Source: an uncultured Gammaproteobacteria bacterium
Lineage (GTDB): Bacteria; Patescibacteriota; Patescibacteriia; VMEV01; CAYQCH01
Reading direction: 5' to 3'
Length of the DNA: 64,000 nucleotides
Assembly: GCA_964352335.1 (NCBI GenBank)
Contig: CAYGRO010000002.1
Coordinates: forward strand, 77,138 to 141,137
How positions within the stretch are numbered: position 1 is the first letter of the stretch; every line of letters starts with the position of its first letter. The notes beneath the pieces are model-generated. The model was not told the origin of the DNA. It saw only the letters and a program-made list of their open reading frames with translations, and searched no databases. Positions 4,882 through 63,880 of the stretch are shown piece by piece. The position numbers were made by a program, and so were the translations under genes.

Positions 4882-5117
4882 TATAGCATAAAGCTAGCAA
4901 AACAGACTTCAAGAAAGGAAGTGAAGCTTGCTTATCAACCCATTCGATTATCATTTTAGTTTCGACCAAAAAAAAGGTCGTAAACATTTAACCAACAAAA
5001 TACGCGTCAGAGGCTATCCGCTTCGTGCACGTACCCGAGTGGACCAGTTCCAACGGTATATCACGGGCCATAAGCTCGGTCTCTGAGGAACCAAGAGACT
5101 TAGGAGGGAATCCGCCA

Positions 5118-5151
5118 TGTCGTTCACAAACGACATGGCGTTTTTCATTCA
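5118..5151 (+). terminator. Intrinsic terminator on plus strand (possible 3' end of a small RNA)
   Basis: Perfect 11-bp inverted repeat gccatgtcgtt/aacgacatggc followed by GTTTTTC. No plus-strand CDS lies upstream; the upstream ~130 nt are GC-rich. Confidence 0.4.
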
Positions 5152-5205
5152 CAAATGAAAGCAGAGTAGGTTCAGCGCTGGGCTTACTACTACTCTGCGG
5201 GCGAC

Positions 5206-8024: not shown

Positions 8025-8073
8025 AAAATGTTGTCAGGGAGGGGTCAAAAGACCGCCTCCCCGATTACCACCG

Positions 8074-9399
8074 CTAGGCCTTGGTAGGCAATGCGATGCG
8101 CCCTCTATAGGCAGTGGGAACCACTCCCTTTTCACAGGACATTCGCTCCCACACGGATTGCATGAGAGCTTGGTATTGCTGAACCGTTGGCGCCACCAGT
8201 TGAAAGTGGCACTGCTTCGGAAGCAGGGTCGTCACGAGAGGAATGACACCGTAAGGAGCATCCCCTCTGTAGATGAGGTCACCCAGAACGTTGATAACGC
8301 GCTCAAATGAGTGTACCACATCGGTCGTCGGCTTAAAGATGTTCAGCCCAGTACAGACTTCAGCGCCGAAGATGTTCTCGATCTGAGTCTTCACATGGTA
8401 GGCGTACCAACCATTAGTCAACCGGATATTCGCCTCCGTGATATGGACACATCCATCCGGCAGAATGAGCATGTCAACAGAAAGGCAGCCTTGAACCCCC
8501 TTGAGCATCAGAAGGTCCCCCAACCGAAGCGCCTTATCCCGAATACACGAGAAGACCTTTTCAGTCATGCACGAGCCCTCAGTTGGCCTGCTAAAGACCA
8601 GGTTGCCATAGGAGAGCGGCTTGCCATCCGCACCAGACCTGACCAGAAGCTGGTCAGAAGCACCGAGGAAGTGAACGTGTTGTCCCTCGATTTTTAGAAG
8701 AGCACCTACGGCGACATGGTCACCGAAGAAAGGCTCGACGAGAAGAGAGTTCTTTTCTCCATTCAGCTCGAGCCAGATCTCCTCTAGCCCTTGCTTGGGG
8801 TGAATGCACTGGCCGTCTGACGAAGCCTCGCCATCGATTCGGACCATGCACTCTTCGTGATCTTGGAGGATCACTTCGGCCTGGGACGCGAGCTCCGTGA
8901 ACGATCTAACGATGCAGTGAGGAGTGAAAAGATCATACTCCCCAGCTTCCTTAGCAAGCGCACGTTGGGTGATCTTGGAACCCAGCCCCCAAAGTGAGGG
9001 ATGGTTACTGACCACGTATTGAGCCCAAAACTCATCTTCAGTTGTCAGGCCGAGAAGCTCCGAGAGCAGATGAGCGATGCGAATTTCCCCATCGTTCTTA
9101 CCCGCCTCGAAGAATTCGACCTTGTAGCCGCGCTTGATGTACTCAGCGATCCTTCTCAAGGTCTTTTGACCTGGTTCACTGATCAAGGATTCCACAGGAT
9201 GATCACCACCGACCACCCAAATGTCTGTAGCACCAAGGTTCACAGACTTGAGCCAAGCAACTTGTGCTGCTGAACCACATTCTCCAGTCGATGTGACGAG
9301 AATTCCCGGAACAGCAATTGCCCGAAAGCTCAAACCACGAACCTTGGTTGACTCCAACCCAAGCCAAGAGCTCAGATCTGCAATTGTAATAACTTTCAC
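8074..9399 (-). CDS. ATP-grasp family ligase (pre-ATP-grasp N-domain + ATP-grasp), substrate unknown
   Basis: 441 aa, GC-rich. Assigned on an ATP-grasp-like overall pattern; I did not identify a named motif. A hairpin terminator lies downstream at ~8040-8070. Confidence 0.4.
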   Translation of the reverse strand: MKVITIADLSSWLGLESTKVRGLSFRAIAVPGILVTSTGECGSAAQVAWLKSVNLGATDIWVVGGDHPVESLISEPGQKTLRRIAEYIKRGYKVEFFEAGKNDGEIRIAHLLSELLGLTTEDEFWAQYVVSNHPSLWGLGSKITQRALAKEAGEYDLFTPHCIVRSFTELASQAEVILQDHEECMVRIDGEASSDGQCIHPKQGLEEIWLELNGEKNSLLVEPFFGDHVAVGALLKIEGQHVHFLGASDQLLVRSGADGKPLSYGNLVFSRPTEGSCMTEKVFSCIRDKALRLGDLLMLKGVQGCLSVDMLILPDGCVHITEANIRLTNGWYAYHVKTQIENIFGAEVCTGLNIFKPTTDVVHSFERVINVLGDLIYRGDAPYGVIPLVTTLLPKQCHFQLVAPTVQQYQALMQSVWERMSCEKGVVPTAYRGRIALPTKA

Positions 9400-9439
9400 C
9401 GTTACCTCTTTGTTTGTTACTATTTGTTTTAACTGTCAC

Positions 9440-9478
9440 GAAGGACAAAAAAAACCCGCTTTTTTAAGCGGGCAAAAT
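9440..9478 (-). terminator. Intrinsic terminator (minus strand)
   Basis: cccgctt...aagcggg hairpin followed on the minus strand by a T8 run. Confidence 0.5.
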
Positions 9479-9686
9479 ATGTAGATGTTTATGGAATTTA
9501 CATACTTAGCCCGTTTGAAAAACAAGCAATAATAAGGAAAGACATACTAATATGTCGTTGTTCAATAGCAATAGTATTCAATTGTTGTCGTTGCTCCTTT
9601 TTCATAAAAATCAGTATAAATCAATCAATTATGTTTTGTCAAAAAAAATTAACAAAGAAAAAACACCTCAAATGAGATGCTTTTTC

Positions 9687-9701
9687 TGGTTCCCAGACAG
9701 G
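9687..9701 (-). repeat. Direct repeat of the tRNA-Gln 3' end (last 15 nt: T-stem 3' strand + acceptor + CCA)
   Basis: tggttcccagacagg is identical to 9832-9846. It is immediately followed by the palindrome cctgcctatcggcagg (9702-9717). Confidence 0.7.
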
Positions 9702-10182
9702 CCTGCCTATCGGCAGGTAAAGATTCGCCGTCACCACAAAAAGGGTTAGGATCGATGAGCTTCTCATCCCTTATCGACAGATCTATTTTTAGACAAAGTA
9801 AAACGCTCATCAGATTGATGAACGCTTTACTTGGTTCCCAGACAGGGATTCGAACCCCGATTCCATGGACCAAAACCATGTGTCCTACCTTTAGACGATC
9901 TGGGAATAGATAATCTTCTTTTTTTCTTCGCGTCCGATACCGGACTTTAAATATAGTTCACGAGCACGCGCTTCATCTACAGTAGCAAACTCTTCTGTAT
10001 GAACTAGTTTTAAAGGACGGCATCCTTTTGTTGACCTCACTTTGCCATATGTATGATTTTTAAATCGTTTTTCTATATCGGATGTGCTACCAACATATGA
10101 CCAATTAGCTCTATTTTGTGATACTAAATATAGATAAAAGCCATAACAATTGTTAATGGACCCCTGCCTGCCGGCAGGCAGG
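9702..10182 (-). mobile_element. Candidate inserted element interrupting a second tRNA-Gln copy; carries an intact tRNA-Gln and a GIY-YIG ORF
   Basis: Bounded by hairpin-forming imperfect inverted termini: CCTGCCTGCCGGCAGGCAGG (10163-10182) and CCTGCCTATCGGCAGG (9702-9717). Flanked by the 5' (10183-10237) and 3' (9687-9701) fragments of a tRNA-Gln. No integrase or transposase is seen. Confidence 0.3.
9832..9905 (-). tRNA. tRNA-Gln (anticodon UUG), CCA encoded
   Basis: Manual fold: acceptor TCCCAGA/TCTGGGA (U1-A72), D-arm GTCT-AAAGGTA-GGAC, anticodon arm CATGG-TTTTGGT-CCATG (anticodon TTG), variable loop GAAT, T-arm CGGGG-TTCGAAT-CCCTG, discriminator A, CCA. Confidence 0.85.
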
Positions 10183-14865: not shown

Positions 14866-16518
14866 CTAACTCAAAGCTAATTCATCATCAATAGTGATCT
14901 GAGTTGATTGAATATTAGATAAATCTACATTTGAAGCAAAATTAATCTTTGGGCCAAATGTATAATTAAACAATAATGATTCTTGTAAATCATGGATTTG
15001 TTTATTCCATGTTGAGCCAAATAAATCTTTGGCAACTTGTTCCGTACCAATATGTTTTAATATTTGCCCTCTATCTACAAAATACACTTCATTAATACTA
15101 GGAGCTGTTAGCATACTTCCGGGTCTAAACCCAACATTTTTCCCCAAAGGAATACTTGCAAGCTCTGCATCTGTAATTGTTTTAACGGTAGAAAAGTCTC
15201 CTTTGTACCAAGTATCATAGACAGCCTGAGTAACAAATACATGTCTTGTGCCAGCTGAACTATAGTAATAAACAGCATCTAAGCTTCCTTTAATTAAGTC
15301 TCCAGCTTTAAATGAAGTTGTTGGTGACACTGGTGTTGGGTTTGGATTAGGTACTGGTTGAGAAGATCCAATTTCAACGGAAAATGTTGAAAATACATCT
15401 CCATCATACATAATTTCTAAGGTATATTTTGTATTTGAGTTCAGTGTTGTGAGTAGGTCTAATTTACCAAAATCATCTGTAAGCCCAGAAAGTGTAGAAA
15501 CAATTTGCCCCCCAGTTTTGATTGTTACTAGTAATTCTCTTAATGGCAATAATTCTCCTTCTTCACTACGCAATGTAATAACAGCCATTAATTCATTTCC
15601 ATCAACAGAAGATTCAACGAATGATTTATCTAAAGATGGCTGACGCAAATCAACATAGACATCATAATTTGGGCTAATCCATGTATTATTATCTCCATCC
15701 ATTGTTGTTAAAAACAATTCTCCGTTAATGAACTTGACTTCTGGATCAATTGATGCAGACCAAGTAGAAAAATTTGTTCCTGTATTTGTTGCAATATACT
15801 GCTTGCCATTTAAATTAACGATGACATTTTTTGTAATACCAAGCCCTCTATCTCTTGCTTGCCCTGTAAGAATAATAGGCTGATCCGGATTAATGAGGGT
15901 ATTATTTTCTCCATAAACAAAACCGTTTACAAAAGCGAGTGGACCTTGCTGATCAATTTTACTTTCTTTGAAAAAGATCGTTGTAGAAGTTTCTAATGGA
16001 ACTGTGGTTGCAATTCCAGAAGAAAAAAAGACACCTTTGTCATTTGTTTGGAAAACACCATCATTACCAGCGTCTTGTGGCTGACTTAATGCAACTTGAA
16101 AAATTTTATCACTAATAAAGGCATTTGATTCTAAACTGACAAAAAATCTTTGTGTAGAAGCCGTAAATATATGACTAATATTTTTAAATTCCCATACATT
16201 TGTAAATTGTCCTTCTGCTAATAGTTTATCATACCCCCACCCTTGAAAACCAGCATCACCAGTATCTAACCATAAGCGCATTTTGGCTACTTCAATACCA
16301 TTTCTTGCAGTTCCAGAAGATGTCAAAGTAAGCGTATTTAAGACTTCTCCTATATTTGTTGATATATCAAAATCAAGAGCCAAAACATTAAAATCACCAC
16401 CATAAACTCGTGGTTCAGTTATATGACGAATAGTAAAAGTTGCATCAGAAGCAGCCTGTGCAGGAAGAACCGGTAATAATGATAGTAATAACGCACCAAG
16501 TAAAAATAGATATCTCAT
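14866..16518 (-). CDS. Secreted protein with the C-terminal ~120-aa shared domain described in findings
   Basis: Signal peptide (LLSLLPVLPAQAAS). The C-terminal segment GDLIKGSLDAVYYYSSAGTRHVF...YKGDFSTVKTITDAELASIPLGKNVGFRPGS...VYFVD is homologous to the N-terminal domains of the 17419-21021 and 38121-39299 proteins. Confidence 0.5.
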   Translation of the reverse strand: MRYLFLLGALLLSLLPVLPAQAASDATFTIRHITEPRVYGGDFNVLALDFDISTNIGEVLNTLTLTSSGTARNGIEVAKMRLWLDTGDAGFQGWGYDKLLAEGQFTNVWEFKNISHIFTASTQRFFVSLESNAFISDKIFQVALSQPQDAGNDGVFQTNDKGVFFSSGIATTVPLETSTTIFFKESKIDQQGPLAFVNGFVYGENNTLINPDQPIILTGQARDRGLGITKNVIVNLNGKQYIATNTGTNFSTWSASIDPEVKFINGELFLTTMDGDNNTWISPNYDVYVDLRQPSLDKSFVESSVDGNELMAVITLRSEEGELLPLRELLVTIKTGGQIVSTLSGLTDDFGKLDLLTTLNSNTKYTLEIMYDGDVFSTFSVEIGSSQPVPNPNPTPVSPTTSFKAGDLIKGSLDAVYYYSSAGTRHVFVTQAVYDTWYKGDFSTVKTITDAELASIPLGKNVGFRPGSMLTAPSINEVYFVDRGQILKHIGTEQVAKDLFGSTWNKQIHDLQESLLFNYTFGPKINFASNVDLSNIQSTQITIDDELALS

Positions 16519-17418: not shown

Positions 17419-20400
17419 TTATCCACAAAGGTTAGACTCGAAAGTCATATTGTTCGCAGCGAATGTATTAAGATCAGCTAATCGAGCAGCAAGCGTAGTA
17501 TACGCAACACCACCGATAGTGAAATCATATTGATTCATTGTTAATTGGATGTTGTCATTTGTAGAACATCCAGTAGCATCAACACGTAATTCGTAGTCAT
17601 GTGTTCCTGAAGTGTTAAGCAATGTTAACCCTGGGAATACATAAGCTGAAGCAGCGATAGCTACAGTAGCTTGAACTGTTCCATCGATAACAAGATCAAT
17701 GTTATCAGTACCAAGACAAACAGCAGCAGCATCGTTAGTGTTACAGTTCCCACCAAGAGCATTTAACTGAATATTTGAACCAGAACCAACGATCAAGTCG
17801 AAGTTTCCAATAGGCATATCAGTTTGACCTGGTAAGATGCTTGCAGCACCAGTAGCTTTAGATACAACACGTAATTGTCCATTTAATGGAGTTAATACAC
17901 GCCCTGTGAATGTTGTTAGACCAGCAGCGTCATTTACAGTAATACCTGAATCAAGTCCTTTCATTGTAATACCAGTTTGGTTTACAACGTCAACAGACAA
18001 TGTGTCATTTGTTGGATCTGGTTGATTTGAATCACCAGCATTAGGACCAGTCGCTTCTACAGTAATAACCGCATTAGAACCAGCGGCCACTTTAATTTGA
18101 CCAGGGTTGAAAGTACAGTTAGGAGTAACATTTGTTACAGTACGAGAACAAATTTCTGTAGCAGCAGAGGCATATGTACCAGCAACTGTAGCTCCTTCGA
18201 TGAAGAATTTAACAGTTTTGATATTTTGCAATGCAGCAGCAGAGTTTTGTGTAATTGTTGCAGCAACATTTGTTAATGAAGCACCTTCAGCATTTGTCAA
18301 TTGAACAGAAACTTTATTACCAGTTAATGTTTCATTTTGACCAAGGAATTGTTGTGGAGGAAGTGTAGACTGAGCAGTTGTAATTACAACAGCAGCAGAG
18401 AAGATCACAGATCCACCAGCAGTAACAGTTGTAAAGTTAAGTGCTTGTCCAGAACTAGCTCCAGAACCAGAAAGTGCATTCAAAGTAGTAGCAGCTACTA
18501 CAGTACCTGGAGTTACAGTTCCAGCTTGTGTACATTCAACAACTAATGTTCGTTCACTATTAGATTGTACAGTGAAGTTCATTGAGAATGTTAATGTTTG
18601 GATTGCTGCAGCACCACTTAAAGCTTGTGATTGACTTTGGTTTTCACCGTCCTTTGTTTTCACTCGAACAGTTGTACATGAACCATTGTTTACACCAGCA
18701 GCGAAAGCGATTGTTACAGAAGTAATCAATACATTTTCAGTTGATGGACCAAGGATTACATATTCACCCATTGCTTTATTAGAAGCATTAGATACAACGT
18801 TCAAAGATGTAGAGTCAGCTTGTACGCTGATTCCAGAAAGAAGAACCACAGTTACAAGTGTTCCTTGAACTGTCCCAGATGGGAAGTTTACAGAACCACC
18901 AATATCAAATGAGATATTGCTTGAACCAGCAGTTAATTGAAGACCAACGATATCATTAGCTTCATATGTAGTATCTACTCCAGATGGGTTAGCATCACAT
19001 TCAACGATGATAACATAGTCACCAACGTTCAATACTTTAGAGAAGTTTACAGTTACAATAGTAGCTAAATTAGGGCTTACTGTAGAACCAACTTGTGATC
19101 GGTTCATAGCACCTAAGTCTACATTTGATTCGTCAATTTCAGCAGCACCTGGAAGGTTAGAAATGTAAGTTTCACAATTCGTTAAACCTTCAGCAGTACC
19201 AGTTTGAGCTTGAATCATTTGTAAGTTCAAAGAGTTTAATGTAGCTCGAGAACCTCGAATTTCTACTAAGAATACAGCAACAGTAGCGTTAGATGTACCA
19301 TTAGAGATTTGGTCACCAGATCCAGAAGATTGGTTAAGACCAGTTACAGAAGTAGCTAAGTTTACATTAGTAACAGTTGCAGATGAACCATTAATTGTGA
19401 AAGTAGCAGATAATGTAAGTGTTGTTACTGTAGGCGCAACAAATACATTCCGTTGAGCATCAATGAAGATGAACATTGGAGCTGGGTATTCAACATCGAT
19501 ACCGATAGTTTGTCCAGCTTGACCCCAAACGTCACACCATAATTCAATAGTGTAAGATTGGTCGTTAAAGAATTGGTCAGATTCGTTCACCATGAATACC
19601 ATGAATGAACCAACCCACATCCAATCACCAGTAATTACATTACCATTTCGAGTAGCGAAACAGTTTGTAACATCAAGAGTTCCAGAAGTATCGAAAACTA
19701 AATGTGGAACATTAGCTTCGTTTCCAGAAACGCTTAATTGGTATTGGAATAATCGAACTTGTTCTCCTGGTTCTACTGTACCTGGACCAACTGGAGAGTT
19801 GAAAGAGATTACAGAGATATCAGAAGAAAGAATAGTAACAGCTGAACGGTTCATTAATTCAATAGCAGAGCTAAGAACTACAGCAGAACCATTTACAGTC
19901 ATTCCTGTTAAATCAAGAATGAATAGACCAGAAGTAGATGTAGTACCACCCATTACCATTACTTCATTACATTCACCTGTTCCGAAAGTAAGACCATTTC
20001 CTTCAATTACTTCAGCAACACCTTTAGTGTCGTCAGATGAAGTAAGTTTAGCGAAGAAACCGTCACCTTCTACGTGAACTGTTGCATTAGAGTTGAAACT
20101 TACTGTCCCTCGACCAGAGTCGAAAGTCCAAGCATCAACAGTAACTGAACCAGAACCGTTGTAACAGATGTTTAATTCAACATGACCTAATGTGAACACT
20201 GTTCCGTTAGAAGCATTAGCAGTTTTATCTACTCCACTTGTAACAGTAAGTGACCAGTCAGCACCAGAAGTTGGAGGAGGAGTTCCTGAACCACCTTCTA
20301 AAGTACCTTTTCGATCTGGAGTTGTAACACCAGCGAAAGGCATAGCTGATCCCATTGTGCTACCAAACCATGTGTTTAAAGCAGCTTGGTCAGAGAACAT

Positions 20401-21021
20401 GATTACAGCAGCTAATACAGCTGAGTTTACTCCAGTTAACATAGAGTGTCCTGCAGAAGTAGCAACGTAGTAATCAGAACCTAACATACCAATAGTACCA
20501 ATTGGAGCCATAGCAGCACCAATAGCATTAGCATTTACATTTCCAGAAGCTACAGTGTAGTTTGTGAAAAATGCGTCAGGTACGTCTTGAATTTTTGTTG
20601 CCCAGTTAGATCCGAAAAGAGCCAAAGCAGTAGCTTCGTCAGCAATTGAATGTAATTGAGCATTAGCACCTACCATATAAACTTTAGGGTCAGTAGTGAT
20701 TTTCACTAATTGAGCACCTGGACGGTAAGTAACATTTCCTCCGATAGCAACAGCAGCTAATTCAGAATCAGTAATAGTTTTTACTGTGCTGAAATCAGAC
20801 CACCAAGTTTTGTAAGTTTTTTCATTAGGGAAAACATATCGTTTACCGTCATTACCAACGTAGTAAAGAGCGGCTAAACTAGCTTTCACTAATTCACCTG
20901 GAGCTACAGCAGCTTCAGAAGCAGCAGCAGATAGAGGTGCAAATGCTGCGATTCCGATAGACCATGTAATAGTCATCACAGAAACAGCGATTGTGAATCC
21001 TTTTTTAAGAGTTTTTTTCAT
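17419..21021 (-). CDS. Giant secreted surface protein (1200 aa), Thr/Ser/Gly/Asn/Val-rich beta-repeat body, N-terminal shared domain
   Basis: Signal peptide. Residues ~40-160 carry the shared domain (ALYYVGNDGKRYVFPNEKTYKTWWSDFSTVKTITDSELAAVAIGGNVTYRPG...). The remainder is low-complexity and adhesin-like; no LPXTG motif. Confidence 0.6.
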   Translation of the reverse strand: MKKTLKKGFTIAVSVMTITWSIGIAAFAPLSAAASEAAVAPGELVKASLAALYYVGNDGKRYVFPNEKTYKTWWSDFSTVKTITDSELAAVAIGGNVTYRPGAQLVKITTDPKVYMVGANAQLHSIADEATALALFGSNWATKIQDVPDAFFTNYTVASGNVNANAIGAAMAPIGTIGMLGSDYYVATSAGHSMLTGVNSAVLAAVIMFSDQAALNTWFGSTMGSAMPFAGVTTPDRKGTLEGGSGTPPPTSGADWSLTVTSGVDKTANASNGTVFTLGHVELNICYNGSGSVTVDAWTFDSGRGTVSFNSNATVHVEGDGFFAKLTSSDDTKGVAEVIEGNGLTFGTGECNEVMVMGGTTSTSGLFILDLTGMTVNGSAVVLSSAIELMNRSAVTILSSDISVISFNSPVGPGTVEPGEQVRLFQYQLSVSGNEANVPHLVFDTSGTLDVTNCFATRNGNVITGDWMWVGSFMVFMVNESDQFFNDQSYTIELWCDVWGQAGQTIGIDVEYPAPMFIFIDAQRNVFVAPTVTTLTLSATFTINGSSATVTNVNLATSVTGLNQSSGSGDQISNGTSNATVAVFLVEIRGSRATLNSLNLQMIQAQTGTAEGLTNCETYISNLPGAAEIDESNVDLGAMNRSQVGSTVSPNLATIVTVNFSKVLNVGDYVIIVECDANPSGVDTTYEANDIVGLQLTAGSSNISFDIGGSVNFPSGTVQGTLVTVVLLSGISVQADSTSLNVVSNASNKAMGEYVILGPSTENVLITSVTIAFAAGVNNGSCTTVRVKTKDGENQSQSQALSGAAAIQTLTFSMNFTVQSNSERTLVVECTQAGTVTPGTVVAATTLNALSGSGASSGQALNFTTVTAGGSVIFSAAVVITTAQSTLPPQQFLGQNETLTGNKVSVQLTNAEGASLTNVAATITQNSAAALQNIKTVKFFIEGATVAGTYASAATEICSRTVTNVTPNCTFNPGQIKVAAGSNAVITVEATGPNAGDSNQPDPTNDTLSVDVVNQTGITMKGLDSGITVNDAAGLTTFTGRVLTPLNGQLRVVSKATGAASILPGQTDMPIGNFDLIVGSGSNIQLNALGGNCNTNDAAAVCLGTDNIDLVIDGTVQATVAIAASAYVFPGLTLLNTSGTHDYELRVDATGCSTNDNIQLTMNQYDFTIGGVAYTTLAARLADLNTFAANNMTFESNLCG

Positions 21022-24829: not shown

Positions 24830-25633
24830 TTACTGAATAAAGTAAGTTGAAAAAAAGATAATTGAAGCACTTAAACCCGCAATTACAAGCGGAATTGTTA
24901 ATTTAAGTTCTCCTTGTTGCCTCTTTTTAAGTAATTGTATTACTAATTCATTATAAATATAGTAGAACAACATTATAATCAAACCATACAGGAAAAAGTG
25001 GGTTGGAAGCAAGTTAAGAACAAGTAATAATTGTACCCCCAATAGTGTTCCAAAAGCTGAAAATATGAGTGTATGTTTTAATGCAATCTTATGTATTGAA
25101 TAAAGATCAAATTGAATGAAAAAATATACGAGAGCTGAAACAGAAATGCTAATACCAAATGGCACTTGAATGAAGGTCTGAAGCCCCACAATAGCCGTTG
25201 TAAAAAGCATTAGTGATAAAAGGTAGAGATAATTACTTAACTTCTCCAATGTATAAGCTTGATAGGAAATAGGTCGTTGCCAAAACAAAAATAGAGATTC
25301 TAACCATATCCATGTACAAAGAGGAAGCAAAACAAGTAACCCCCATAAAAGAAAAATGTTTTCCGAAAAAAAGAAGACTGTTAAACCAGATGCCCAAAGC
25401 AAAAAGAGAAATGGATAAAATCTTAGTCGAGAAATAAACGGATGCCCAGCGCCGATAAAAATAAGAATCAATAAGACAGAAAGAAGAATGATTCCACTAA
25501 TAACTCCGATGATAGGAAGAGTAATAGGCCCGAGTACTGTTGCAATCCATTGTGGATACGAATGCAATAATAACAATAACAAAAAGAGCACTGTACTAGA
25601 TAGAAACGGACTGAATCTCAGAAGAAAATACAT
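24830..25633 (-). CDS. Polytopic integral membrane protein, unknown function
   Basis: 267 aa with ~8 hydrophobic helices. Confidence 0.4.
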   Translation of the reverse strand: MYFLLRFSPFLSSTVLFLLLLLLHSYPQWIATVLGPITLPIIGVISGIILLSVLLILIFIGAGHPFISRLRFYPFLFLLWASGLTVFFFSENIFLLWGLLVLLPLCTWIWLESLFLFWQRPISYQAYTLEKLSNYLYLLSLMLFTTAIVGLQTFIQVPFGISISVSALVYFFIQFDLYSIHKIALKHTLIFSAFGTLLGVQLLLVLNLLPTHFFLYGLIIMLFYYIYNELVIQLLKKRQQGELKLTIPLVIAGLSASIIFFSTYFIQ

Positions 25634-38120: not shown

Positions 38121-39299
38121 CTAGGAAACAGGAAACATCAATGAATCTATCATGACATCTATAACATCTAAGTATGAATCAATCCCATATTCAACACTGG
38201 TAAATTGCGCCTCATAAAAATAAGGCCCCATATCAAAAATGACATATCTAAAAATTACGCCATCATTTTGTGAGGTCACGAGTTCATATGCATTCGGATA
38301 TTGTAAACTTGGTCCACTATAAAACACTCTATCAGACAGATCTTTTCTAATTTCTAAAATCTGATTTATATCGTCTCCAAATTGTTGCTTAAACCAACGT
38401 ATCACAAGTAAGTTCTCAGCAAATTCATCACCTGGTTCAAATTTTGACTCAATCGATATCAACGGTGAATCAAATAATTCAGTACTCGTATCTGTGAATT
38501 CAACAGAGAAATAGGTTGGGACTTCCAGAATATGCCCAGCCTCTGTATATGTTTGGGTAGATTGTACTGATTTTTTTTCAAAATGTTCTTTTGAACAAGA
38601 AACACATGAATAAGCAGCCTCTGGTGTAAGTACACTGGGACCTTTTGTAATATGAGCTGGTAATGTGGCAGATCTAAAAGTGAGTTTTTCTAAAGACTCA
38701 AAACGGTTCCAAATCCAAGCTAAACCAGAAATAGGACGAATTTGCCATAAACCATCCGTTCTTTGCTCTGAAAGGTATCTTTGCCCAGCAAAATCAAAAA
38801 CACTTCCTATCGGATGAATTGCTTGGCCATCGATAATCTCAACCGTACCACCAATTGTATAGTCGAAGAAAAAAGAAATATCTACATCATCCACTTTTTT
38901 AGACCAGTCATTTCCATACAGCTCCTCAGCAACAGCTTCTGATGGTAAATTTCTCAATACACCAAAAGGTTCTACAGCATAAACTTCTGGAACAGAAGGA
39001 ATTTTAATTAATCGGCTCCCAGGTCTATAAAGAACATTTTTCCCAAGTGAATAAGAAGCCAGTTCTTCTGGAGTAACTACTTGTACTTGAAGGAAGTTGT
39101 CATACCATGAAAAATAAATTTTCTCATTTGGAAAAGCATGTCTAAAATTATCTGGCCCTACCCAATAGACTGCAGTAGACTGTGTCGATTTAATTAGCTT
39201 CCCATCTAATAAATTAAACGATTCTTGAGCATGCGCAAAACCACCAACAAAAAAGCTTGCCGAAACAAAGAGGATGAGTTTTAAAGTAAGTGATTTCAT
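38121..39299 (-). CDS. Secreted protein with N-terminal shared ~120-aa domain
   Basis: Signal peptide; residues ~35-150 (LIKSTQSTAVYWVGPDNFRHAFPNEKIYFSWYDNFLQVQVVTPEELASYSLGKNVLYRPGSRLIKIP...) are homologous to the domains in the 14866-16518 and 17419-21021 proteins. Confidence 0.45.
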   Translation of the reverse strand: MKSLTLKLILFVSASFFVGGFAHAQESFNLLDGKLIKSTQSTAVYWVGPDNFRHAFPNEKIYFSWYDNFLQVQVVTPEELASYSLGKNVLYRPGSRLIKIPSVPEVYAVEPFGVLRNLPSEAVAEELYGNDWSKKVDDVDISFFFDYTIGGTVEIIDGQAIHPIGSVFDFAGQRYLSEQRTDGLWQIRPISGLAWIWNRFESLEKLTFRSATLPAHITKGPSVLTPEAAYSCVSCSKEHFEKKSVQSTQTYTEAGHILEVPTYFSVEFTDTSTELFDSPLISIESKFEPGDEFAENLLVIRWFKQQFGDDINQILEIRKDLSDRVFYSGPSLQYPNAYELVTSQNDGVIFRYVIFDMGPYFYEAQFTSVEYGIDSYLDVIDVMIDSLMFPVS

Positions 39300-57182: not shown

Positions 57183-58175
57183 TTATTTATCTGAAAACCG
57201 AACAACCACAGTTGATTTTGGCAAAAGATCTGGTGTTAATTTTAAGTCATACAAAACACCAGCTTGAGCAAGATTTGGAATAGAAGATAAAAAAAGTGTC
57301 ATTGGAAAAGGAGCGTCATTCACGAGGTCTTTCCCATTTACATCTGGCTCTATAGATATCATAACTTCTGCACCAGCCAAATCTAATGGAAATGCTAAGT
57401 CAGAGAAGATACCAATTGGTGGGTCTTGTAAAAAATCTTCTCCAGGAAAACTTGGAGATGCGGAATCATTGGAACTAAACCTAGAAAAATTATCTGCGGT
57501 AGTTGAACTTCTAAAGCGACCAGTCGTTAATGTTTTTTCATCAATAATAGCCCAACCTTCGTAGATCCAACCTTGAGGTAATTGTGGTAATTGTAATTTA
57601 GAGTTATTTGAAATAACATCTCCAAACCAAATCCCGCTTCTTTCATTTACTAAAGCATTATTATCCGTTGGGGTCGCTAAAGAATACTGACCACTTGCTT
57701 CATCTAATCCTGCTCCCACATAAGCTAAAACTGTTCTATCATTTTTTATCTCCCCTTCTAAAAATGGGATAATAATAGGCTGTTGGATAATACGATCATC
57801 AAAAAGTGATAAACGAACGGATACTATATCTGTAATATCTGGAGGAAGCTGGATAACCCCATCTTTTATAACCTGACCAGAACTAAAAACCAATTCACCA
57901 GGCGCTCTATGTAAAATTTTTGAAAAACTATGTCTTTGCCCTTTCGCGTTTTCTACCTCTAGTAGATACCCTACATTATCTAAAATGGGTAATGATTGAG
58001 GGAAAAATTGAATACCTGTGGCAATAGGCACCGTTCTTCTGACAACACCATCTAGGTTAGGTCTCTGATTAATATAGAGCTGATACCCCAAAGCAAGAAT
58101 AGCGACAACAGCCAAAGTGACTGTTCCCGAAGTTAAACGACCATAACCAGATTGTGATCTCAATAATTTGAACAT
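57183..58175 (-). CDS. Membrane-anchored hypothetical protein
   Basis: N-terminal TM followed by a 300-aa extracytoplasmic region with no motif. Confidence 0.35.
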   Translation of the reverse strand: MFKLLRSQSGYGRLTSGTVTLAVVAILALGYQLYINQRPNLDGVVRRTVPIATGIQFFPQSLPILDNVGYLLEVENAKGQRHSFSKILHRAPGELVFSSGQVIKDGVIQLPPDITDIVSVRLSLFDDRIIQQPIIIPFLEGEIKNDRTVLAYVGAGLDEASGQYSLATPTDNNALVNERSGIWFGDVISNNSKLQLPQLPQGWIYEGWAIIDEKTLTTGRFRSSTTADNFSRFSSNDSASPSFPGEDFLQDPPIGIFSDLAFPLDLAGAEVMISIEPDVNGKDLVNDAPFPMTLFLSSIPNLAQAGVLYDLKLTPDLLPKSTVVVRFSDK

Positions 58176-58480: not shown

Positions 58481-58945
58481 TTAACTTAATTTTTCAGAAA
58501 TAGATTTCCACATCCCTTTAAATTCTTTTGATAGCTTGTTCAATTTTGGTTGCATTTTTTTACTTCTTGTTGCTTTTTTGACAGCAGAGTCAACAATTTC
58601 TTCGAATCGTTTTTTTGTCATTTCTCCTTTGTATTTAGAAACACGAGCAAGAATATCTGCTTTTGCTTTTGTAAAAATACGTAAAGTTTCTGGCGAGACT
58701 TCACCAAGAGTTTTTTCAATCATTGCATCAGCTTGCTTTTTTGTTATTTTCAATTGTTTCCAAAGCTTATGTGACTCACGCATTAAATCATCTTGCAATT
58801 CTTTTCCTTTTTTCGGAGCTTTTAATAAACCAACAGTCACACCAATAATTCCACCAAGTGCTAATGCAACTGTTGCAATAGAAGCTGACTTTTTGGCTCT
58901 GCTTACTGCAGATGGCTGTTTTTTCTCTTTTTTGTTTTTTGTCAT
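58481..58945 (-). CDS. Lys-rich membrane-anchored helical protein (YtxH-like), unknown function
   Basis: N-terminal TM and a predicted amphipathic helical remainder. Confidence 0.35.
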   Translation of the reverse strand: MTKNKKEKKQPSAVSRAKKSASIATVALALGGIIGVTVGLLKAPKKGKELQDDLMRESHKLWKQLKITKKQADAMIEKTLGEVSPETLRIFTKAKADILARVSKYKGEMTKKRFEEIVDSAVKKATRSKKMQPKLNKLSKEFKGMWKSISEKLS

Positions 58946-59007
58946 ATTAGTATTTTATCTTGCCTTAAAATATGGCATTAATAGGTAAAAATATAAATTA
59001 TCTACGC

Positions 59008-61086
59008 TCATAATTTCACAGTTTGACCAGGTTGTAAAGATTGTGATTCTTCTTTATTATCACCTTCTTTTTCTTTTACTTGACCATGCTGTAATGTGAC
59101 AGTTTTATTTGTAAGCTCGTTCAATTTCATTTCTTTTGATGGAATTTCGTTTTGAGCCTCTTCTGGAGAAGATATGCCATCACGTGGTGATAAAACCTTT
59201 TTTTCTTGTTTTTCAGGTTTTACTGAGTTTGAATTATTCTCAGGTTTCTTTTCAATAACTTTTGATTTCTTTCCTTCTTTTTGTTTATCCCTTCTTTTTT
59301 TTAAACAATCAGAACAATAAATGGGTTTATTTGGATCTGGATCGAAAGGAACACTGTCTTTTTTCCCACAATCGTCACAGGTAATTTCAAATTGCTTTAA
59401 TTGTTTTTTAGGCTTTGTCGTCTCCGACTTTGGTTTTGGTATTGGAGCAGAAGTTGTTTTTTTTGCCACCTCCTTCTTTGGTTCTGATTCTGTTTTTTTA
59501 ATGACGGGAGGTGTTTTAGGCCCTGAACTTGCCACCTCTTTTTGATCTTCCGCATCATCTGCATCGTAGTCTTCATCATCAGCATCTCTTCCAACAATAT
59601 CCCCAATATCCACATCAATATTTTCACTTAAGTCTACCATTGCCTGAGTTAACTGACGCACAATTTCAACTGCATCTGCATTTCCCATTTTTGCAAGTTG
59701 TTCGTATTCTGGTAACAGTTTTTCAATTTTTTTAATTTTCTTTTTATTACGCTTCTTTTTTCGCTTTTCTTCATCTTTAACGCCTTCTTCATCTGGCGTT
59801 GCCATACCTGACCATTCAAGAATTTCTCTTTCAACATCTTCTCTGCTATTTGAATATTTTTCTCGTGTCCTGTCGATAACTTTTTGTGCATTCCCAGTAT
59901 TTCCTGAAAACGGAGCCAATCCGACAGCACTAAAAGGTTCAGAAGCAATCCCATTTATCATTAACTTTAAATAACAATTATACTTTGGGATATTCACCAA
60001 ATCTTCTTCTATATACCTTGGTGTAAATTCTTTCACTAATTCATCTGCATCTGCGGCCCCAATCCTAAAGAGAATCATTGTTCCAACGTTTCCAAATACA
60101 GCAGCTTTTACAACATCCCCTAATTGTTCAACATATTGATGAGCAATAATAAGATTTAATCGGTACTTTCGGGCTTCAGACAAAATATTCGCGAAACTTT
60201 CTGTTGCAAAGTTTTGAAACTCATCTACATAAAGATAAAAATCCTTTCGTGTTTCTTCATCGATATCTACACGACTCATCGCAGCTAATTGGATTTTTGT
60301 AATCATCATAGCCCCTAAAAGCGCCGCATTATCTTCTCCAATTCGCCCTTTAGACAGATTGAACAAAATGATTTTTTCATTATCCATTGCTTCTCGAATA
60401 TTTATTGAAGAAGATGTTTGTCCAATAACGTTCCTGATTAATGAACTAGATAAAAATTGTCCAACTTTATTTTGAATAGGAGAAATTGCTTCCGTTAAGA
60501 ACTGTTGATTATATTTAGAAAATTCATCTACCCAAAATGATTTAACAACAGGATCTTGAATTTTTGCAATCACTTTTTTTCTAAAATTATTGTCAACAAA
60601 CATTCGAGGAATCCCTAGTAATGTTGCATCTTGATAATCGAGTAAAGCTAAAATTACGTTTCTCAATAAATATTCAAGCCGAGGCCCCCAACTATCTGCC
60701 CAAATCTTTTTAAACACCCCGACAAGCCCAGAAGCAACTAAATGACGATATTGAGGCTCCACCTTTTCAACCACATTAAAAGCAATAGGAAAATCCATAT
60801 CTGAAGGATTGAAATAAATCACATCATCTATACGATTGTCTGGAATAAGTTTGATCACTTTTTCTACTAAATCTCCATGCGGATCTACAAGCGCTAAACC
60901 TTTGTTATTATAAATATCTTGAATAACAAGATTTTCAATCATGGTAGATTTACCCATCCCTGTTTTTCCAATCAAATACATATGACGGCGGCGATCGTCT
61001 CTCATAATACCAAATCGCTGACGAGCATTTCTAAAATTTGTTTCGCCAACAAAGGTAATTTCAGGATGAATTGGTATCAAGCCCAT
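59008..61086 (-). CDS. VirD4/TraG/TraD-family (T4SS coupling-protein-like) P-loop ATPase, cytoplasmic, with Lys-rich disordered tail and C-terminal CxxC-x17-CxxC zinc ribbon
   Basis: Walker A LIGKTGMGKST. Walker B/coupling-protein signature YVDEFQNF...EARKYRLNLIIAHQYVEQL. No N-terminal TM. C-terminal KKRKKKRNKKKIKK run, acidic stretch, and zinc ribbon ITCDDCGKKDSVPFDPDPNKPIYCSDCLKK. Confidence 0.5.
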   Translation of the reverse strand: MGLIPIHPEITFVGETNFRNARQRFGIMRDDRRRHMYLIGKTGMGKSTMIENLVIQDIYNNKGLALVDPHGDLVEKVIKLIPDNRIDDVIYFNPSDMDFPIAFNVVEKVEPQYRHLVASGLVGVFKKIWADSWGPRLEYLLRNVILALLDYQDATLLGIPRMFVDNNFRKKVIAKIQDPVVKSFWVDEFSKYNQQFLTEAISPIQNKVGQFLSSSLIRNVIGQTSSSINIREAMDNEKIILFNLSKGRIGEDNAALLGAMMITKIQLAAMSRVDIDEETRKDFYLYVDEFQNFATESFANILSEARKYRLNLIIAHQYVEQLGDVVKAAVFGNVGTMILFRIGAADADELVKEFTPRYIEEDLVNIPKYNCYLKLMINGIASEPFSAVGLAPFSGNTGNAQKVIDRTREKYSNSREDVEREILEWSGMATPDEEGVKDEEKRKKKRNKKKIKKIEKLLPEYEQLAKMGNADAVEIVRQLTQAMVDLSENIDVDIGDIVGRDADDEDYDADDAEDQKEVASSGPKTPPVIKKTESEPKKEVAKKTTSAPIPKPKSETTKPKKQLKQFEITCDDCGKKDSVPFDPDPNKPIYCSDCLKKRRDKQKEGKKSKVIEKKPENNSNSVKPEKQEKKVLSPRDGISSPEEAQNEIPSKEMKLNELTNKTVTLQHGQVKEKEGDNKEESQSLQPGQTVKL

Positions 61087-61115
61087 AGGATGTAAAAGGA
61101 TAATGTGTAAAGGAT

Positions 61116-62666
61116 TTAGCTATTGTCTGTATCGTCTGGAATTTGAATATATTTAACTTGTGAATCATCTGGCATAATAGGATCCGACATAGGTGCTTCT
61201 GGTTGAGCTGGAATATTTTTGAGTAATTCATTGGCAACAGGAATATTAGCTACAGTACCTGAAAGCGGGCTAAAAGGAATTTGTAATTCTGGGGGTTCTG
61301 GCGCGGTATCAGGTAATGGCATACTAATTCCACCAATATCTCCTGTTGGTAATGTAGTTGGTGGCTCACTCTTTTTAGCACCAGTACGTTTTACCAATGG
61401 AGCTTTCACACTCATCATTGGGAAATGATAAATGGTTGCAAGCTCTTCTGAATTTAAGACGAACTTACCAGGAGTATCACCAGCATAGGTACTTCTCCCT
61501 GAAATAGCTGCATAAAAAGAATTTTGTCTTTGATAAATACGTGCTTTTTTAAACCAATAATTTGCTTTAGTCCAAGATCTTTTTTCTACTTTTAATCGAT
61601 TCTTGCTGGCATCTTCAAATTGTTTAATCGCTCCAACAACAGGACCTACTCCTCTTGCTTTACTGTAAACTGAATGTTTTGCAAAATAGGCAATCCTAAT
61701 ACGACATTTATACGCGAGCTTTCCTGTTTTTCTTTCCATATCTTCTAAAACAGTTCTTTCCCCTGGCGTTAATTTAAACATGGGACTTTTACCAATTTCA
61801 TCCGTATTATCGTCACCACTACTAGATACGGTTAATTCAGTTCCCGTTGTAGCATCTAATGTTTTAACAAGTAAATGTGGAATATCTAAAAGAAATCCAA
61901 GAATACCACCTCGCTTTTTTAATTTTAAAGGTCTATCAATCATCTTATTAATTTCATTTTGCGCATCCGGAACCCAATCAGGTTCTACAATTGGAATTGC
62001 AAGTATTTGATACCAAATTTGTTCACCTTTTCCAATTTTACTCATGATTTCTAATAATGCTCCCATTGGATCAATAAGTTCTCCACGAAGCTTATCTTCG
62101 AATTCATTATAGGTTTTGATAGGATAGGCATTTGGTTTATCTAGAGCATATCCTGTTCCAAAAAACTCCCAATCTTTATTTGGCCAAACTGATGGAACAT
62201 CTTTTGTATAATCTTTTACTTCACTAACTTCAGCGTCTGGATATTGTGCATAAACAGCCGCTTCAACAAGATCCCTCCAAGATTCTGGACAACGAATAAT
62301 ATATTGCACATATCCTTCTAAACTCACGATTTCAAAAGAGAACCAATCTTGAAACTCACCACCAATTTTTTCTTCTACCCAAGTCGATGTACCATGAGCA
62401 CCTGCTAATTGATTAAAAATAGCTTCCATTGCTGCTGGTGATTGTTCTGTTATCGCTGGAACATCAACAGCAAGAAAGATAAACCTTCTTGACCGTGCTG
62501 AATAAATACCCGAGGTCCAAAACTGAAAAGCTTCCCAAACCTCGTCTAAAAACCATTTAAAAAAAATAAGCCAGACACCATTTACAAATAACAAAGCAAC
62601 CAACTTCCATGTCGGCTGAGTAATCCAATTAAAGATCCAATCAATGGATGTAAATGAAATCGGCAT
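61116..62666 (-). CDS. Membrane protein (2 N-terminal TM) with Pro-rich C-terminus; probable partner of the adjacent ATPase
   Basis: 516 aa, no recognisable catalytic motif; tightly linked (29-nt gap) upstream of the ATPase gene. Confidence 0.35.
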   Translation of the reverse strand: MPISFTSIDWIFNWITQPTWKLVALLFVNGVWLIFFKWFLDEVWEAFQFWTSGIYSARSRRFIFLAVDVPAITEQSPAAMEAIFNQLAGAHGTSTWVEEKIGGEFQDWFSFEIVSLEGYVQYIIRCPESWRDLVEAAVYAQYPDAEVSEVKDYTKDVPSVWPNKDWEFFGTGYALDKPNAYPIKTYNEFEDKLRGELIDPMGALLEIMSKIGKGEQIWYQILAIPIVEPDWVPDAQNEINKMIDRPLKLKKRGGILGFLLDIPHLLVKTLDATTGTELTVSSSGDDNTDEIGKSPMFKLTPGERTVLEDMERKTGKLAYKCRIRIAYFAKHSVYSKARGVGPVVGAIKQFEDASKNRLKVEKRSWTKANYWFKKARIYQRQNSFYAAISGRSTYAGDTPGKFVLNSEELATIYHFPMMSVKAPLVKRTGAKKSEPPTTLPTGDIGGISMPLPDTAPEPPELQIPFSPLSGTVANIPVANELLKNIPAQPEAPMSDPIMPDDSQVKYIQIPDDTDNS

Positions 62667-62779
62667 AATTGTATTTTAGCATGAATCTTCTTTTCTCGAG
62701 AAGTCTTCTTTCTATTTTTTAATAACAAAAAGCAGGGTATAAAACCCCGCTTGTAAATTGTTTATGATAGTTATAGTTA

Positions 62780-63880
62780 TTATGCACTTGCCAAACTATA
62801 TTTACCACCATCTACTTTATTGAATCGATTTTTATTCATCAAAGCTAAGTGAATTGTACTTTTTCCAACAATTCGTTGATTTAATACACGTTCAACAATT
62901 TCATCTCGTGATAATGGTTTTTCAGCTTCACCTAAGACTCGTTGAATAACATCTGCAACAACACCAGGTTCATATCCCCATTCAGATAAGGCATAAATAC
63001 CTCGTCCAACAAGAACATATTTATCATCTAAGATCAGTTCATTATGAACAGTCGCTGGATATGCTGTTTTGTGATCAAATTGCAATTTATTAATCTGTTC
63101 AGCAATATCTGTGAAATGTAACGGCTTTTTAAGATGTTTTAAGACAAGATGAATTTTATCATTCATTCGTTTTGGAGTAATACTATTCCAATCTGATTTA
63201 CCCCAATGTCCAAAAATATTTTGCTTTAATCTCTTTGAAATCCTTAAATGACCTCTCACTTTTGCTTCTGAATGACCAGTTAATGATTCAAGCAATGCTT
63301 TAATTAAAGCATCTTCTTCAATTGGTTCTGAATGAGAGTCAATATACTTAATGAGCTCTTTAATAAGATCATTAATATGTTGCTCTTCTACGATCGATAA
63401 TTTCCATGAACGTTGAAAATGATCAGCTTTATGAAAAAGATCAAATTGTTCATGCAATAATTTATCCATGAAGAATAATAAAATTGAACGATGAACAGTG
63501 CTTTCTTCATTTCTAGACAAAGCTAAGTCTAAAAGATGATTCTCTTCTAAAACTCCACCATGTTGTTCTAAAACTTGAAATAAAACAGTTTGAACTTGTT
63601 TTAATAAATCTGATAATTCTTCTAATTTTCGAAGCTTTTTAATACTTCCAGTCTCGATTTGACGAACACGTTCTCGTGTAACACCAAAATGTTTTCCAAT
63701 CACTTCTAATGTTTGTGGATCATTTCCTGTTAAACCAAATCGGCGACTTAAAACCTCTTGTTCTCTCTCATTTAATTCTTGAAACAAAGTTAATAATACC
63801 GCTTGAGGATCAAACTGGTTCAAGTCTTCGGCTTGTTTATTCTCCATCACCTTATCTAGAATAGATTCCTTGAAATCCAT
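62780..63880 (-). CDS. Protein with N-terminal sigma-70 region-4-like HTH followed by ~280 aa of unknown function
   Basis: Residues ~30-85 (LNEREQEVLSRRFGLTGNDPQTLEVIGKHFGVTRERVRQIETGSIKKLR) are a textbook sigma region 4.2 HTH, but placed at the N-terminus; no region 2. 366 aa. Confidence 0.45.
   Translation of the reverse strand: MDFKESILDKVMENKQAEDLNQFDPQAVLLTLFQELNEREQEVLSRRFGLTGNDPQTLEVIGKHFGVTRERVRQIETGSIKKLRKLEELSDLLKQVQTVLFQVLEQHGGVLEENHLLDLALSRNEESTVHRSILLFFMDKLLHEQFDLFHKADHFQRSWKLSIVEEQHINDLIKELIKYIDSHSEPIEEDALIKALLESLTGHSEAKVRGHLRISKRLKQNIFGHWGKSDWNSITPKRMNDKIHLVLKHLKKPLHFTDIAEQINKLQFDHKTAYPATVHNELILDDKYVLVGRGIYALSEWGYEPGVVADVIQRVLGEAEKPLSRDEIVERVLNQRIVGKSTIHLALMNKNRFNKVDGGKYSLASA

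Follow-up and report, generated by a model that had tools for sequence, protein, structure and literature searches.

Among the coupling proteins (T4CPs) of type IV secretion systems (T4SSs), some are known to carry a variable C-terminal extension. T4CPs that lack a transmembrane domain (TMD) and work with a membrane protein encoded by another gene form an accepted class, exemplified by TraJ/TraI of pIP501 (PMC7431656), and that paper quotes them as class iii of Llosa and Alkorta. In the Patescibacteria, VirD4-like T4CP homologues are widespread, and the passages of Quinonero-Coronel et al. 2025 (PMC12102498) used here count 5,713 of them in 2,918 of 3,035 genomes (96%) and leave exaptation of these proteins possible. 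The present study concerns one such homologue and its partner, encoded on a 64,000-nucleotide stretch (referred to as the window; contig CAYGRO010000002.1 of assembly GCA_964352335.1, positions 77,138 to 141,137) that the Genome Taxonomy Database (GTDB) assigns to Patescibacteriota. The original prediction, made from the sequence of the window alone, had placed a 692-aa coupling-protein-like ATPase and a 516-aa membrane protein in adjacent genes. Open reading frames (ORFs) of these lengths were confirmed on the minus strand, at 59008..61086 for the ATPase and at 61116..62666 for the upstream protein, with a spacer of 29 nt between them. The upstream protein belongs to the family DUF8128 (PF26449). 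Very probably, the pair is a split motor of the T4CP family, in which the DUF8128 protein is the N-terminal half and the ATPase the C-terminal half. Features below lie on the minus strand unless stated otherwise.

The two genes are halves of one protein, as fused orthologues, the profile phrog_5156 and gp156 of Bacillus phage G match both of them colinearly. On phrog_5156 (824 profile positions), residues 105-331 of the DUF8128 protein aligned to positions 75-289 (E = 2.4e-14), and residues 30-440 of the ATPase aligned to positions 408-822 (E = 2.1e-62), colinear with the DUF8128 match. The C-terminal half of gp156 (825 aa) is an ATPase of the same type (27% identity, E = 6e-36), and its residues 20-323 matched the DUF8128 profile in hhalign with 96.5% probability over 302 columns (E = 8e-10). 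With gp156 as the query, more than 100 single-chain proteins of 725-1,142 aa that carry both PF26449 and PF10412 were retrieved, mostly from Patescibacteria; the hosts of fused proteins include Berkelbacteria, Falkowbacteria, Gottesmanbacteria and Saccharibacteria. On the fused protein P0420, residues 59-441 of the window's DUF8128 protein mapped to residues 44-382 (118 bits) and residues 8-442 of the ATPase to residues 389-823 (533 bits). Both window proteins also mapped onto the fused protein P0419. The fused orthologues carry one N-terminal transmembrane (TM) helix. The window contains the split copy of the family only.

Gene order gave operon-level linkage in addition to this Rosetta-stone evidence. 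The synteny sample comprised 80 loci of GTDB species representatives. In the 55 loci where DUF8128 was detected, it always lay directly upstream of the ATPase gene and in the same orientation, the median distance from stop to start being 11 nt, so that the two genes do co-occur in relatives as the original prediction required. One GTDB locus was a read-through fusion of the two genes, and the order DUF8128-ATPase was repeated in the related loci L001 and L003. The retained synteny and the identity of about 70% across hundreds of species indicate that the pair is inherited vertically and conserved in a housekeeping context. The idea that the partner could supply the membrane anchor in trans was supported by these results, with TraJ/TraI as a precedent (PMC7431656), and was sharpened to the two halves of a split protein. 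No obvious Shine-Dalgarno sequence was seen in the 29-nt spacer before the ATPase gene.

The ATPase core (residues 1-430; 59797..61086) comprises a nucleotide-binding domain (NBD) and an inserted all-alpha domain (AAD). The Walker A motif, GKTGMGKS (residues 40-47; 60946..60969), contains invariant G40, K41, T42, G43, G45, K46 and S47, and the Walker B region, DFYLYVDEFQNF (residues 282-293; 60208..60243), contains invariant D288 and E289. Between them lies the AAD (residues ~111-221; 60424..60756), with seven predicted helices (H111-H221). The coupling-protein region EARKYRLNLIIAHQYVEQL, which had been reported together with the Walker motifs, was present at residues 304-322. The Walker A pattern G.TG.GKS occurred in 113 of 120 homologues and Walker B in all 120, and both motifs of the window ATPase aligned with those of TrwB. 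More than 8,000 homologues of the ATPase were found, with about 70% identity over the core; the 22 Patescibacteria homologues that were aligned were about 55-80% identical in the core (54-82% overall) and showed long invariant runs there.

Profile, sequence and fold searches, the test proposed for the family, placed the ATPase with TrwB and DotL and not with FtsK or HerA. The Pfam model TrwB_AAD_bind matched residues 30-346 with 39.2 bits (cut-off, 20.5), DUF87 matched residues 33-117 just over its cut-off (26.5 bits), and TraG-D_C stayed just under its cut-off. When PDB sequences were searched with the single protein or with a 22-sequence profile, the only significant matches were TrwB (1e-7) and DotL/IcmO (4.6e-4), and VirB4, FtsK and HerA gave nothing at E <= 1. 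The AlphaFold2 model of the ATPase had a mean predicted local distance difference test score (pLDDT) of 70.6. Its best fold match was TrwBdeltaN70 (E = 4e-9), with a TM-score of 0.62 relative to the length of TrwB and ~415 of ~420 residues aligned, almost all of the soluble part of TrwB, followed by HerA (4d2i; E = 7e-8, TM-score of 0.47), DotL, Cagbeta and the VirB4 C-terminal domain, the last of which (4ag6) ranked 26th. A chromosome motor of the FtsK or HerA kind, acting in segregation, division or repair and merely resembling a coupling protein, would agree with the second rank of HerA in this search, with the marginal DUF87 match and with weak HerA matches in PADLOC. The DivIC/FtsB genes a few genes downstream in several loci, and FtsEX in the window ~47 kb from the pair, would also fit it. 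This explanation is nevertheless improbable: no Pfam or NCBIfam match to the FtsK_SpoIIIE motor domain was found in the ATPase, no FtsK structure was among its top 50 fold matches, and the FtsK-like TcpA matched poorly (prob 0.69, E = 0.47). The T4CP-typical AAD is present, and no NurA, Sir2 or other effector gene adjoins the pair in the window or in the loci L001, L003 and L004. Moreover, ftsK is annotated separately in Saccharibacterium TM7x.

The NCBIfam equivalogs of conjugative proteins scored far under their cut-offs with the ATPase (SXT_TraD, 41 versus 366 bits; conju_CD1115, 38 versus 250; conj_TOL_TraD, 28 versus 648). Because these TraD/VirD4 models were matched so far below threshold, the ATPase is best classified, from its sequence, as a distinct branch of the T4CP family, outside the named conjugative subfamilies. 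Of the features of T4CPs, it has the Walker motifs, the AAD and the profile and fold match; a TMD in the same chain, linkage to T4SS or relaxase genes within the window and scores above the NCBIfam cut-offs are absent. A hydropathy scan found no hydrophobic or TM segment in the ATPase, in agreement with the original prediction that it has no N-terminal membrane anchor.

The partner was 100% identical to P0001, for which PF26449 is precomputed, and nearly all of its homologues carry PF26449 too. The local Pfam and NCBIfam copies gave no match for the partner; the PF26449 model is missing from that Pfam copy. The DUF8128 family comprises 3,234 representatives at E <= 1e-3 (clusters at 50% identity). 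Two N-terminal TM helices had been expected in the partner, but only one was clear, at residues 21-41 (62544..62606; Kyte-Doolittle window, 2.08), and no second segment reached the hydropathy threshold. The AlphaFold2 model (pLDDT, 73.9) likewise has one long N-terminal helix, at residues 19-59. The TM helix is followed by the basic sequence SARSRR, which by the positive-inside rule implies that the large domain of the protein is probably cytoplasmic, on the same side of the membrane as the ATPase. This alpha/beta domain (residues 60-425, ~365 aa; 61392..62489) was modelled mostly with a pLDDT of 85-95, and with a domain of this size the partner is far more than an anchor. The C-terminal tail (61119..61391) is predicted to be disordered (pLDDT < 50) and ends in V.YI.IPDD, the form found in the window's clade; PP.NLP occurred at the C terminus of 80 of 120 members.

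The fold of the DUF8128 model provided a lead toward VirB4. In a Foldseek search of the PDB, the top 13 matches were all full-length TrwK/VirB4 of R388 (prob 0.96-1.00, E = 6e-4 to 9e-3), with ~450 aligned columns but a TM-score of only ~0.3; the next match had a prob of 0.47. The structure 4ag6, the VirB4 C-terminal domain, was not among the matches, so the resemblance would be to the N-terminal domain of VirB4, as a lead from the fold of a model. Sequence homology of DUF8128 to VirB4, TrsD or TrsE was rejected, since every sequence-level test was negative. In hhalign, a 28-sequence DUF8128 profile gave less than 1% probability with the single TrwK, TrsD and TrsE sequences, and a 383-sequence DUF8128 alignment gave 0.2% and 0.1% with 54-sequence profiles of the VirB4 N-terminal and C-terminal domains, respectively. 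As a positive control, the ATPase profile matched the VirB4 C-terminal domain with 85% probability (E = 6e-6). The DUF8128 profile matched nothing among PDB sequences at E <= 10, and Pfam searches of 28 DUF8128 members at E <= 10 gave only noise, with no CagE_TrbE_VirB signal. Literature searches found no mention of PF26449 or DUF8128.

The tail of the ATPase (262 aa, residues 431-692) consists of a helical hairpin, a disordered linker that is acidic and rich in Pro, Ser and Lys, a zinc ribbon and a C-terminal motif. A Lys/Arg run lies within the confidently predicted hairpin (residues 432-487), at residues 441-453 (59728..59766). The poly-Lys run of the original prediction is present there, but it reads KRKKKRNKKKIKK, with Glu in place of the first Lys, and it is not conserved: it occurred in only 23 of 120 homologues and is a feature of the closest relatives. 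The acidic block, at residues 501-515, was also found as predicted and is confined to the closest relatives. The CxxC-x17-CxxC zinc ribbon, ITCDDCGKKDSVPFDPDPNKPIYCSDC (residues 568-594, Pfam match at residues 565-599; 59305..59385), passed the curated cut-offs of PF23477 (zf_Tbcl_2, 48.6 versus 27 bits) and TIGR04272 (48 versus 36 bits). Its cysteines C570, C573, C591 and C594 were invariant in the 22-homologue alignment, and the ribbon was present in 118 of 120 homologues, with a spacer of 17 residues in 117. Two copies of CxxC-x17-CxxC were seen in the tail of 4 of 120 homologues, including P0203. The same domain in small proteins of Methanosarcina mazei binds zinc experimentally (PMC12704099); zinc binding has been measured for these M. 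mazei members, and for the window ribbon it is predicted from domain membership. After the disordered linker, the protein ends in LQPGQTVKL (59011..59037), for which the consensus is about L.(K/P)GE.(I/V).(F/L); 62 of 120 homologues have a motif of this type among their last 14 residues. In F, the tail of TraD binds TraM, and the window motif might contact the HARE-HTH protein encoded upstream (described below) in an analogous way. The zinc ribbon goes with the split forms. A motif check found none in the fused proteins P0419 and P0420 or in the paralogues of contig L093; a ribbon in P0419 had been considered, as the match reached query residue 625, and was rejected when the direct check found no CxxC ribbon.

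At least two types of paralogue can be told apart among the fused forms, one of ~825 aa and one of 937-1,142 aa, and the latter type is closest to the window pair. Both types occur in tandem in Berkelbacteria-like contigs (L093, 2432-4921 and 5535-8348; L095, 3456-5924 and 6001-9429), which suggests that two ATPase types may work together. In L093, the tandem paralogues are separated by a 173-aa ORF without a Pfam match. The two types of fused paralogues fit the approximately two copies per genome in the literature. A fused subtype without a TM helix (P0482, on L092), whose ATPase is 53% identical to that of the window, adjoins PrgI/VirB3, VirB4 and an M23 peptidase near dnaA/dnaN. Other fused paralogues adjoin dnaX or gyrBA.

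As a whole, the favoured explanation is that the pair is a Patescibacteria-type T4CP split in two, a membrane-anchored substrate-receptor motor that serves the T4SS of the phylum, and we give it a probability of roughly 55%. By analogy with TrwB, the single-pass anchor of the DUF8128 protein would hold a hexameric ring of the ATPase at the cytoplasmic face of the membrane, and ATP hydrolysis would drive the hand-over or translocation of a substrate. The substrate, probably nucleic acid or nucleoprotein, may be recruited by the AAD together with the tail, and the conduit would be the Patescibacteria T4SS (VirB3, VirB4, VirB6 and pilins) encoded elsewhere in the genome. Taken by itself, the cooperation of the split motor with a T4SS has about even odds, because the ATPase belongs to the T4CP family, close relatives adjoin T4SS genes and T4SSs are widespread in the phylum.

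Several observations weigh against the favoured explanation. A Pfam scan of the 42 window ORFs found no VirB4, VirB6, VirB8, pilin, relaxase or other T4SS gene, and the loci L001, L003 and L004 showed no T4SS or relaxase linkage either. The description of the ATPase as stand-alone thus held within the 64-kb window; other parts of the genome may carry T4SS genes. The low NCBIfam scores and the loci in which DUF8128 is replaced (see below) also count against the favoured explanation. According to the passages of PMC12102498 used here, only 148 of the 5,713 T4CP homologues lie near virB4, the homologues are present in more genomes (2,918) than VirB4 (2,417 of 3,035), relaxases are almost absent (109), and transposon sequencing of S. 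epibionticum found the T4CP homologue non-essential and the T4SS genes essential.

These data bear on a second explanation, in which the same split motor was exapted as a T4SS-independent core translocase or uptake motor for nucleic acid. It might, for example, draw in DNA or RNA from the host or the environment to supply nucleotide salvage, and the ribbon tail and the Sigma70_r4/HARE-HTH protein encoded upstream would handle the nucleic acid. We consider this second explanation possible but doubtful. The occurrence of the family in 96% of genomes and its rarity near virB4 would be expected from such a motor, and sequences that stay ~70% identical from class to class, among housekeeping genes, point to a core function. 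The invariant zinc ribbon, the conserved neighbour of DNA-binding type and the fused paralogues next to dnaX or gyrBA also favour it, and a cultivated member of the phylum was reported in a 2026 preprint (10.64898/2026.06.21.733656) to import host RNA by an unknown route, with T4SS pili possibly involved. However, there is no evident membrane channel partner, and the single TM helix of DUF8128 cannot form a pore alone. The closest fused relatives adjoin T4SS genes, and ComEC-dependent competence already exists in Saccharibacteria (PMC12857230). The arguments for independence from the T4SS are also weaker than they look because of genome incompleteness and the two paralogues. The surveyed metagenome-assembled genomes (MAGs) need only be >50% complete, and this could roughly explain why a single-copy virB4 is missing in ~20% of genomes and a two-copy T4CP family in ~4%. 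In the same way, two paralogues could mask T4CP essentiality in S. epibionticum, and incompleteness and paralogy could also account for the scarcity of relaxases. A further variant is unlikely, though less so than a chromosome motor: the split motor and the Sigma70_r4/HARE-HTH protein would form a T4SS-independent core system that moves nucleic acid across or along the membrane, for example in the import of host DNA or RNA for nucleotide salvage, and its architecture, like the VirB4 N-terminal domain in one half and VirD4-like in the other, could be a surviving VirB4/VirD4 intermediate.

A second gene arrangement (B) was found in about 20 of 70 GTDB loci, in which a mini TM protein is encoded upstream of the ATPase instead of DUF8128. 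In arrangement B, the ATPase gene comes after nrdR-nrdD-nrdG and the gene of the mini protein (80-140 aa, one TM helix), and it is followed in turn by genes for an RNase T-family exonuclease, a family 2 glycosyltransferase (GT2) of the membrane and DivIC. It was seen in L007, L008, L012, L016, L017, L022, L026, L037, L042, L043, L045, L047, L052, L053, L063, L064, L069, L070 and L072, with the ATPase at ~6001 in most of them. The ATPases of arrangement B have kept the zinc ribbon and form one clade nested among the DUF8128-linked ones, and the arrangement looks like a derived upstream rearrangement. A position between nrdR-nrdD-nrdG and an exonuclease would suit the exapted motor. As a functional clue it was counted weak, since GT2 and DivIC also lie downstream of the ATPase in a locus of the DUF8128 arrangement (A), and the nrd linkage looks secondary. 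The TM helix of the arrangement B mini protein is C-terminal. In L004, a 72-aa TM protein replaces DUF8128 between the Sigma70_r4/HARE-HTH gene and the ATPase gene.

Directly upstream of DUF8128, the window encodes a 366-aa protein (62780..63880) with a Sigma70_r4 domain (residues 33-85; 56.9 bits in Pfam) and a HARE-HTH domain (residues 243-296; 38 bits). Its gene occupied this position on the same strand in 41 of the 44 GTDB loci with enough flanking sequence, with a median gap of 75 nt, and it was also a neighbour in L001, L003 and L004. The protein has no sigma region 2, and a second winged helix may follow the HARE-HTH domain. It may act as a regulator of the operon, as an accessory factor of RNA polymerase or as a DNA-binding adaptor. 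The intergenic region (62667-62779) contains, by consensus match only, a terminator-like hairpin (AAGCGGGG...CCCTGCTT) with a T-run (62730..62752) and, after it, an extended -10-like element, TGCTAAAAT, that ends 7 nt before the ATG of DUF8128. The hairpin and this element separate the pair from the Sigma70_r4/HARE-HTH gene, which suggests that DUF8128 and the ATPase may form their own transcription unit, and the position of the element hints at a very short or absent leader on the putative DUF8128 transcript.

Homologues of the ATPase were found in the Bacillus phages G, CP-51, JL and Shanette and in a Microcystis phage (22-27% identity). In phage G, gp155, a VirB4-like ATPase, is encoded directly upstream of gp156 (L088, 1220-5362). 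In phage CP-51, the gene of a related ATPase of 911 aa, gp91, lies between those of a partition protein, before it, and a Replic_Relax nickase-like protein, after it (gp91-gp90; L089, 2753-6314); no similarity to DUF8128 was detectable in the N-terminal half of gp91. The phage homologues and the nickase-like neighbour of gp91 might suggest that the window pair is a remnant of a mobile element, a phage or an anti-phage defence system and has no host function, and PADLOC gave weak matches of the ATPase to mad8 and HerA, while region 4 of the neighbouring protein resembles MzaA. Such an origin is very improbable. The G+C content of the pair (0.33-0.37) resembles that of its flanks, no integrase, repeat or tRNA border was seen around it, and its neighbours are housekeeping genes. 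The conserved synteny and sequence identity argue for vertical descent, and the family keeps its place on the chromosome and is found in almost every genome of the phylum; the phage homologues are distant by comparison. The mobile-element reading was therefore rejected on composition, context and vertical conservation. The defence-system reading was rejected as well, since PADLOC gave only generic P-loop matches for the ATPase and the region-4 match to MzaA, with no defined system, and the partner had no PADLOC match.

The G+C content of the window is low (0.33-0.39). Higher values were seen at 8001-10000 (0.48) and 4001-6000 (0.44); the former segment covers an unannotated 441-aa ORF and adjoins tRNA-Gln (9832-9905). 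Nearly all window genes are on the minus strand, and the GC skew is negative across 1-64000 (cumulative, -3.6), which is consistent with a single replichore in which genes are co-oriented with replication. Besides RNase P RNA and tRNA-Gln, the window carries housekeeping genes for AlaRS (alaS), MnmA, UppP, Mfd, RecJ, LepA and RpoA, as well as FtsEX, an extracytoplasmic function (ECF) sigma factor and polysaccharide synthesis. Over the window and the loci L001, L003 and L004, the housekeeping neighbours were alaS, mnmA, uppP, SecA, SecDF and MurB. Six sizeable window ORFs, all on the minus strand, had no Pfam match: 17419-21021 (1,200 aa), the largest gene of the window, 14866-16518 (550 aa), 8074-9399 (441 aa), 38121-39299 (392 aa), 24830-25633 (267 aa) and 57183-58175 (330 aa). 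Two Lys-codon-rich ORFs are very likely no genes, namely a 150-aa ORF antisense to the YtxH gene (58536-58988, plus strand) and a 101-aa out-of-frame ORF in the region of the ATPase tail (59649-59954, minus strand).

Proteins closely related to the ATPase and to its partner are encoded in MAGs of Patescibacteria/Parcubacteria. Several related contigs (L006, L010, L011, L015, L016, L019, L020 and others) are third-party-annotation MAG records titled 'uncultured Gammaproteobacteria bacterium' or 'Bdellovibrionales', and the record of P0146 names Bipolaricaulota. Gene content and an ATPase identity of >65% put these contigs clearly in Patescibacteria, and such record titles look like placeholders or wrong taxonomic labels.

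The window family almost certainly corresponds to the orphan VirD4-like T4CP homologues of PMC12102498, and it is thus already catalogued and briefly noted in the literature. The passages of that paper that were searched contain no mention of zinc, DUF8128 or the Sigma70_r4/HARE-HTH neighbour, literature searches found no reported function for a Patescibacteria T4CP beyond that paper, and the terms VirD4, T4CP and VirB4 do not occur in the main text of Wang et al. 2023. Newly described here are the split and fused architecture, the zinc ribbon, DUF8128, the Sigma70_r4/HARE-HTH neighbour, the existence of two types of paralogue and the homologue in phage G. The Patescibacteria (Candidate Phyla Radiation) make up a large share of bacterial diversity, cannot make nucleotides, lipids and most amino acids and live off host cells, and a T4CP-type ATPase kept at ~70% identity in ~96% of their genomes must matter to the phylum. 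The 'orphan' ATPase is very probably half of a membrane-anchored motor encoded by two genes here and by one gene elsewhere. The combination of DUF8128, a TrwB-like NBD/AAD and a zinc ribbon, split or fused, is a new domain architecture for coupling proteins, and the architecture is also found in jumbo Bacillus phages. These features define the genes to delete together, the domains for nucleic-acid tests and the interfaces to model.

The VirD4-type T4CPs (TrwB of R388, PDB 1E9R/1GKI; DotL; Cagbeta) have the P-loop NBD and the inserted AAD in common with the window ATPase, although the sequence identity to TrwB is only ~15%. In contrast to these proteins, the window ATPase chain is without the N-terminal two-helix TMD, and the place of the N-terminal module is taken by a separate protein of 516 aa, in which one TM helix is joined to a large folded domain. 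In addition, its tail has a CxxC-x17-CxxC ribbon, and no relaxase or T4SS genes are nearby. HerA and FtsK translocases share the ASCE P-loop fold, and HerA was the second match in the fold search; unlike them, the window ATPase has a T4CP-type AAD, no FtsK_SpoIIIE domain and no NurA partner.

A parallel among TMD-less T4CPs is TraJ/TraI of pIP501, where a soluble T4CP ATPase is likewise believed to reach the membrane through a membrane protein with a gene of its own. By description, the window partner differs from this in that it is demonstrably the detached N-terminal half of the same ancestral protein, since fused orthologues exist, and has a cytoplasmic domain of ~365 aa. The window pair is also chromosomal, vertically inherited and near-universal in the phylum, whereas TraJ/TraI is plasmid-borne.

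In VirB4 (TrwK of R388), with VirB3, a P-loop ATPase likewise comes after an N-terminal domain that is not an ATPase. However, DUF8128 has no sequence likeness to TrwK, TrsD or TrsE, and the ATPase is nearer to TrwB than to VirB4. A parallel to the gene order DUF8128-ATPase is found on pGO1, where the gene of the VirB4 ATPase TrsE directly follows that of TrsD, a small protein that, according to the passages of PMC12102498 used here, resembles the N terminus of VirB4. The phage G protein gp156 (phrog_5156) holds both halves in one 825-aa chain. Unlike the window pair, gp156 has no N-terminal TM helix in its first 180 residues, and its Pfam annotation is PF26449 only, with no zinc finger recorded.

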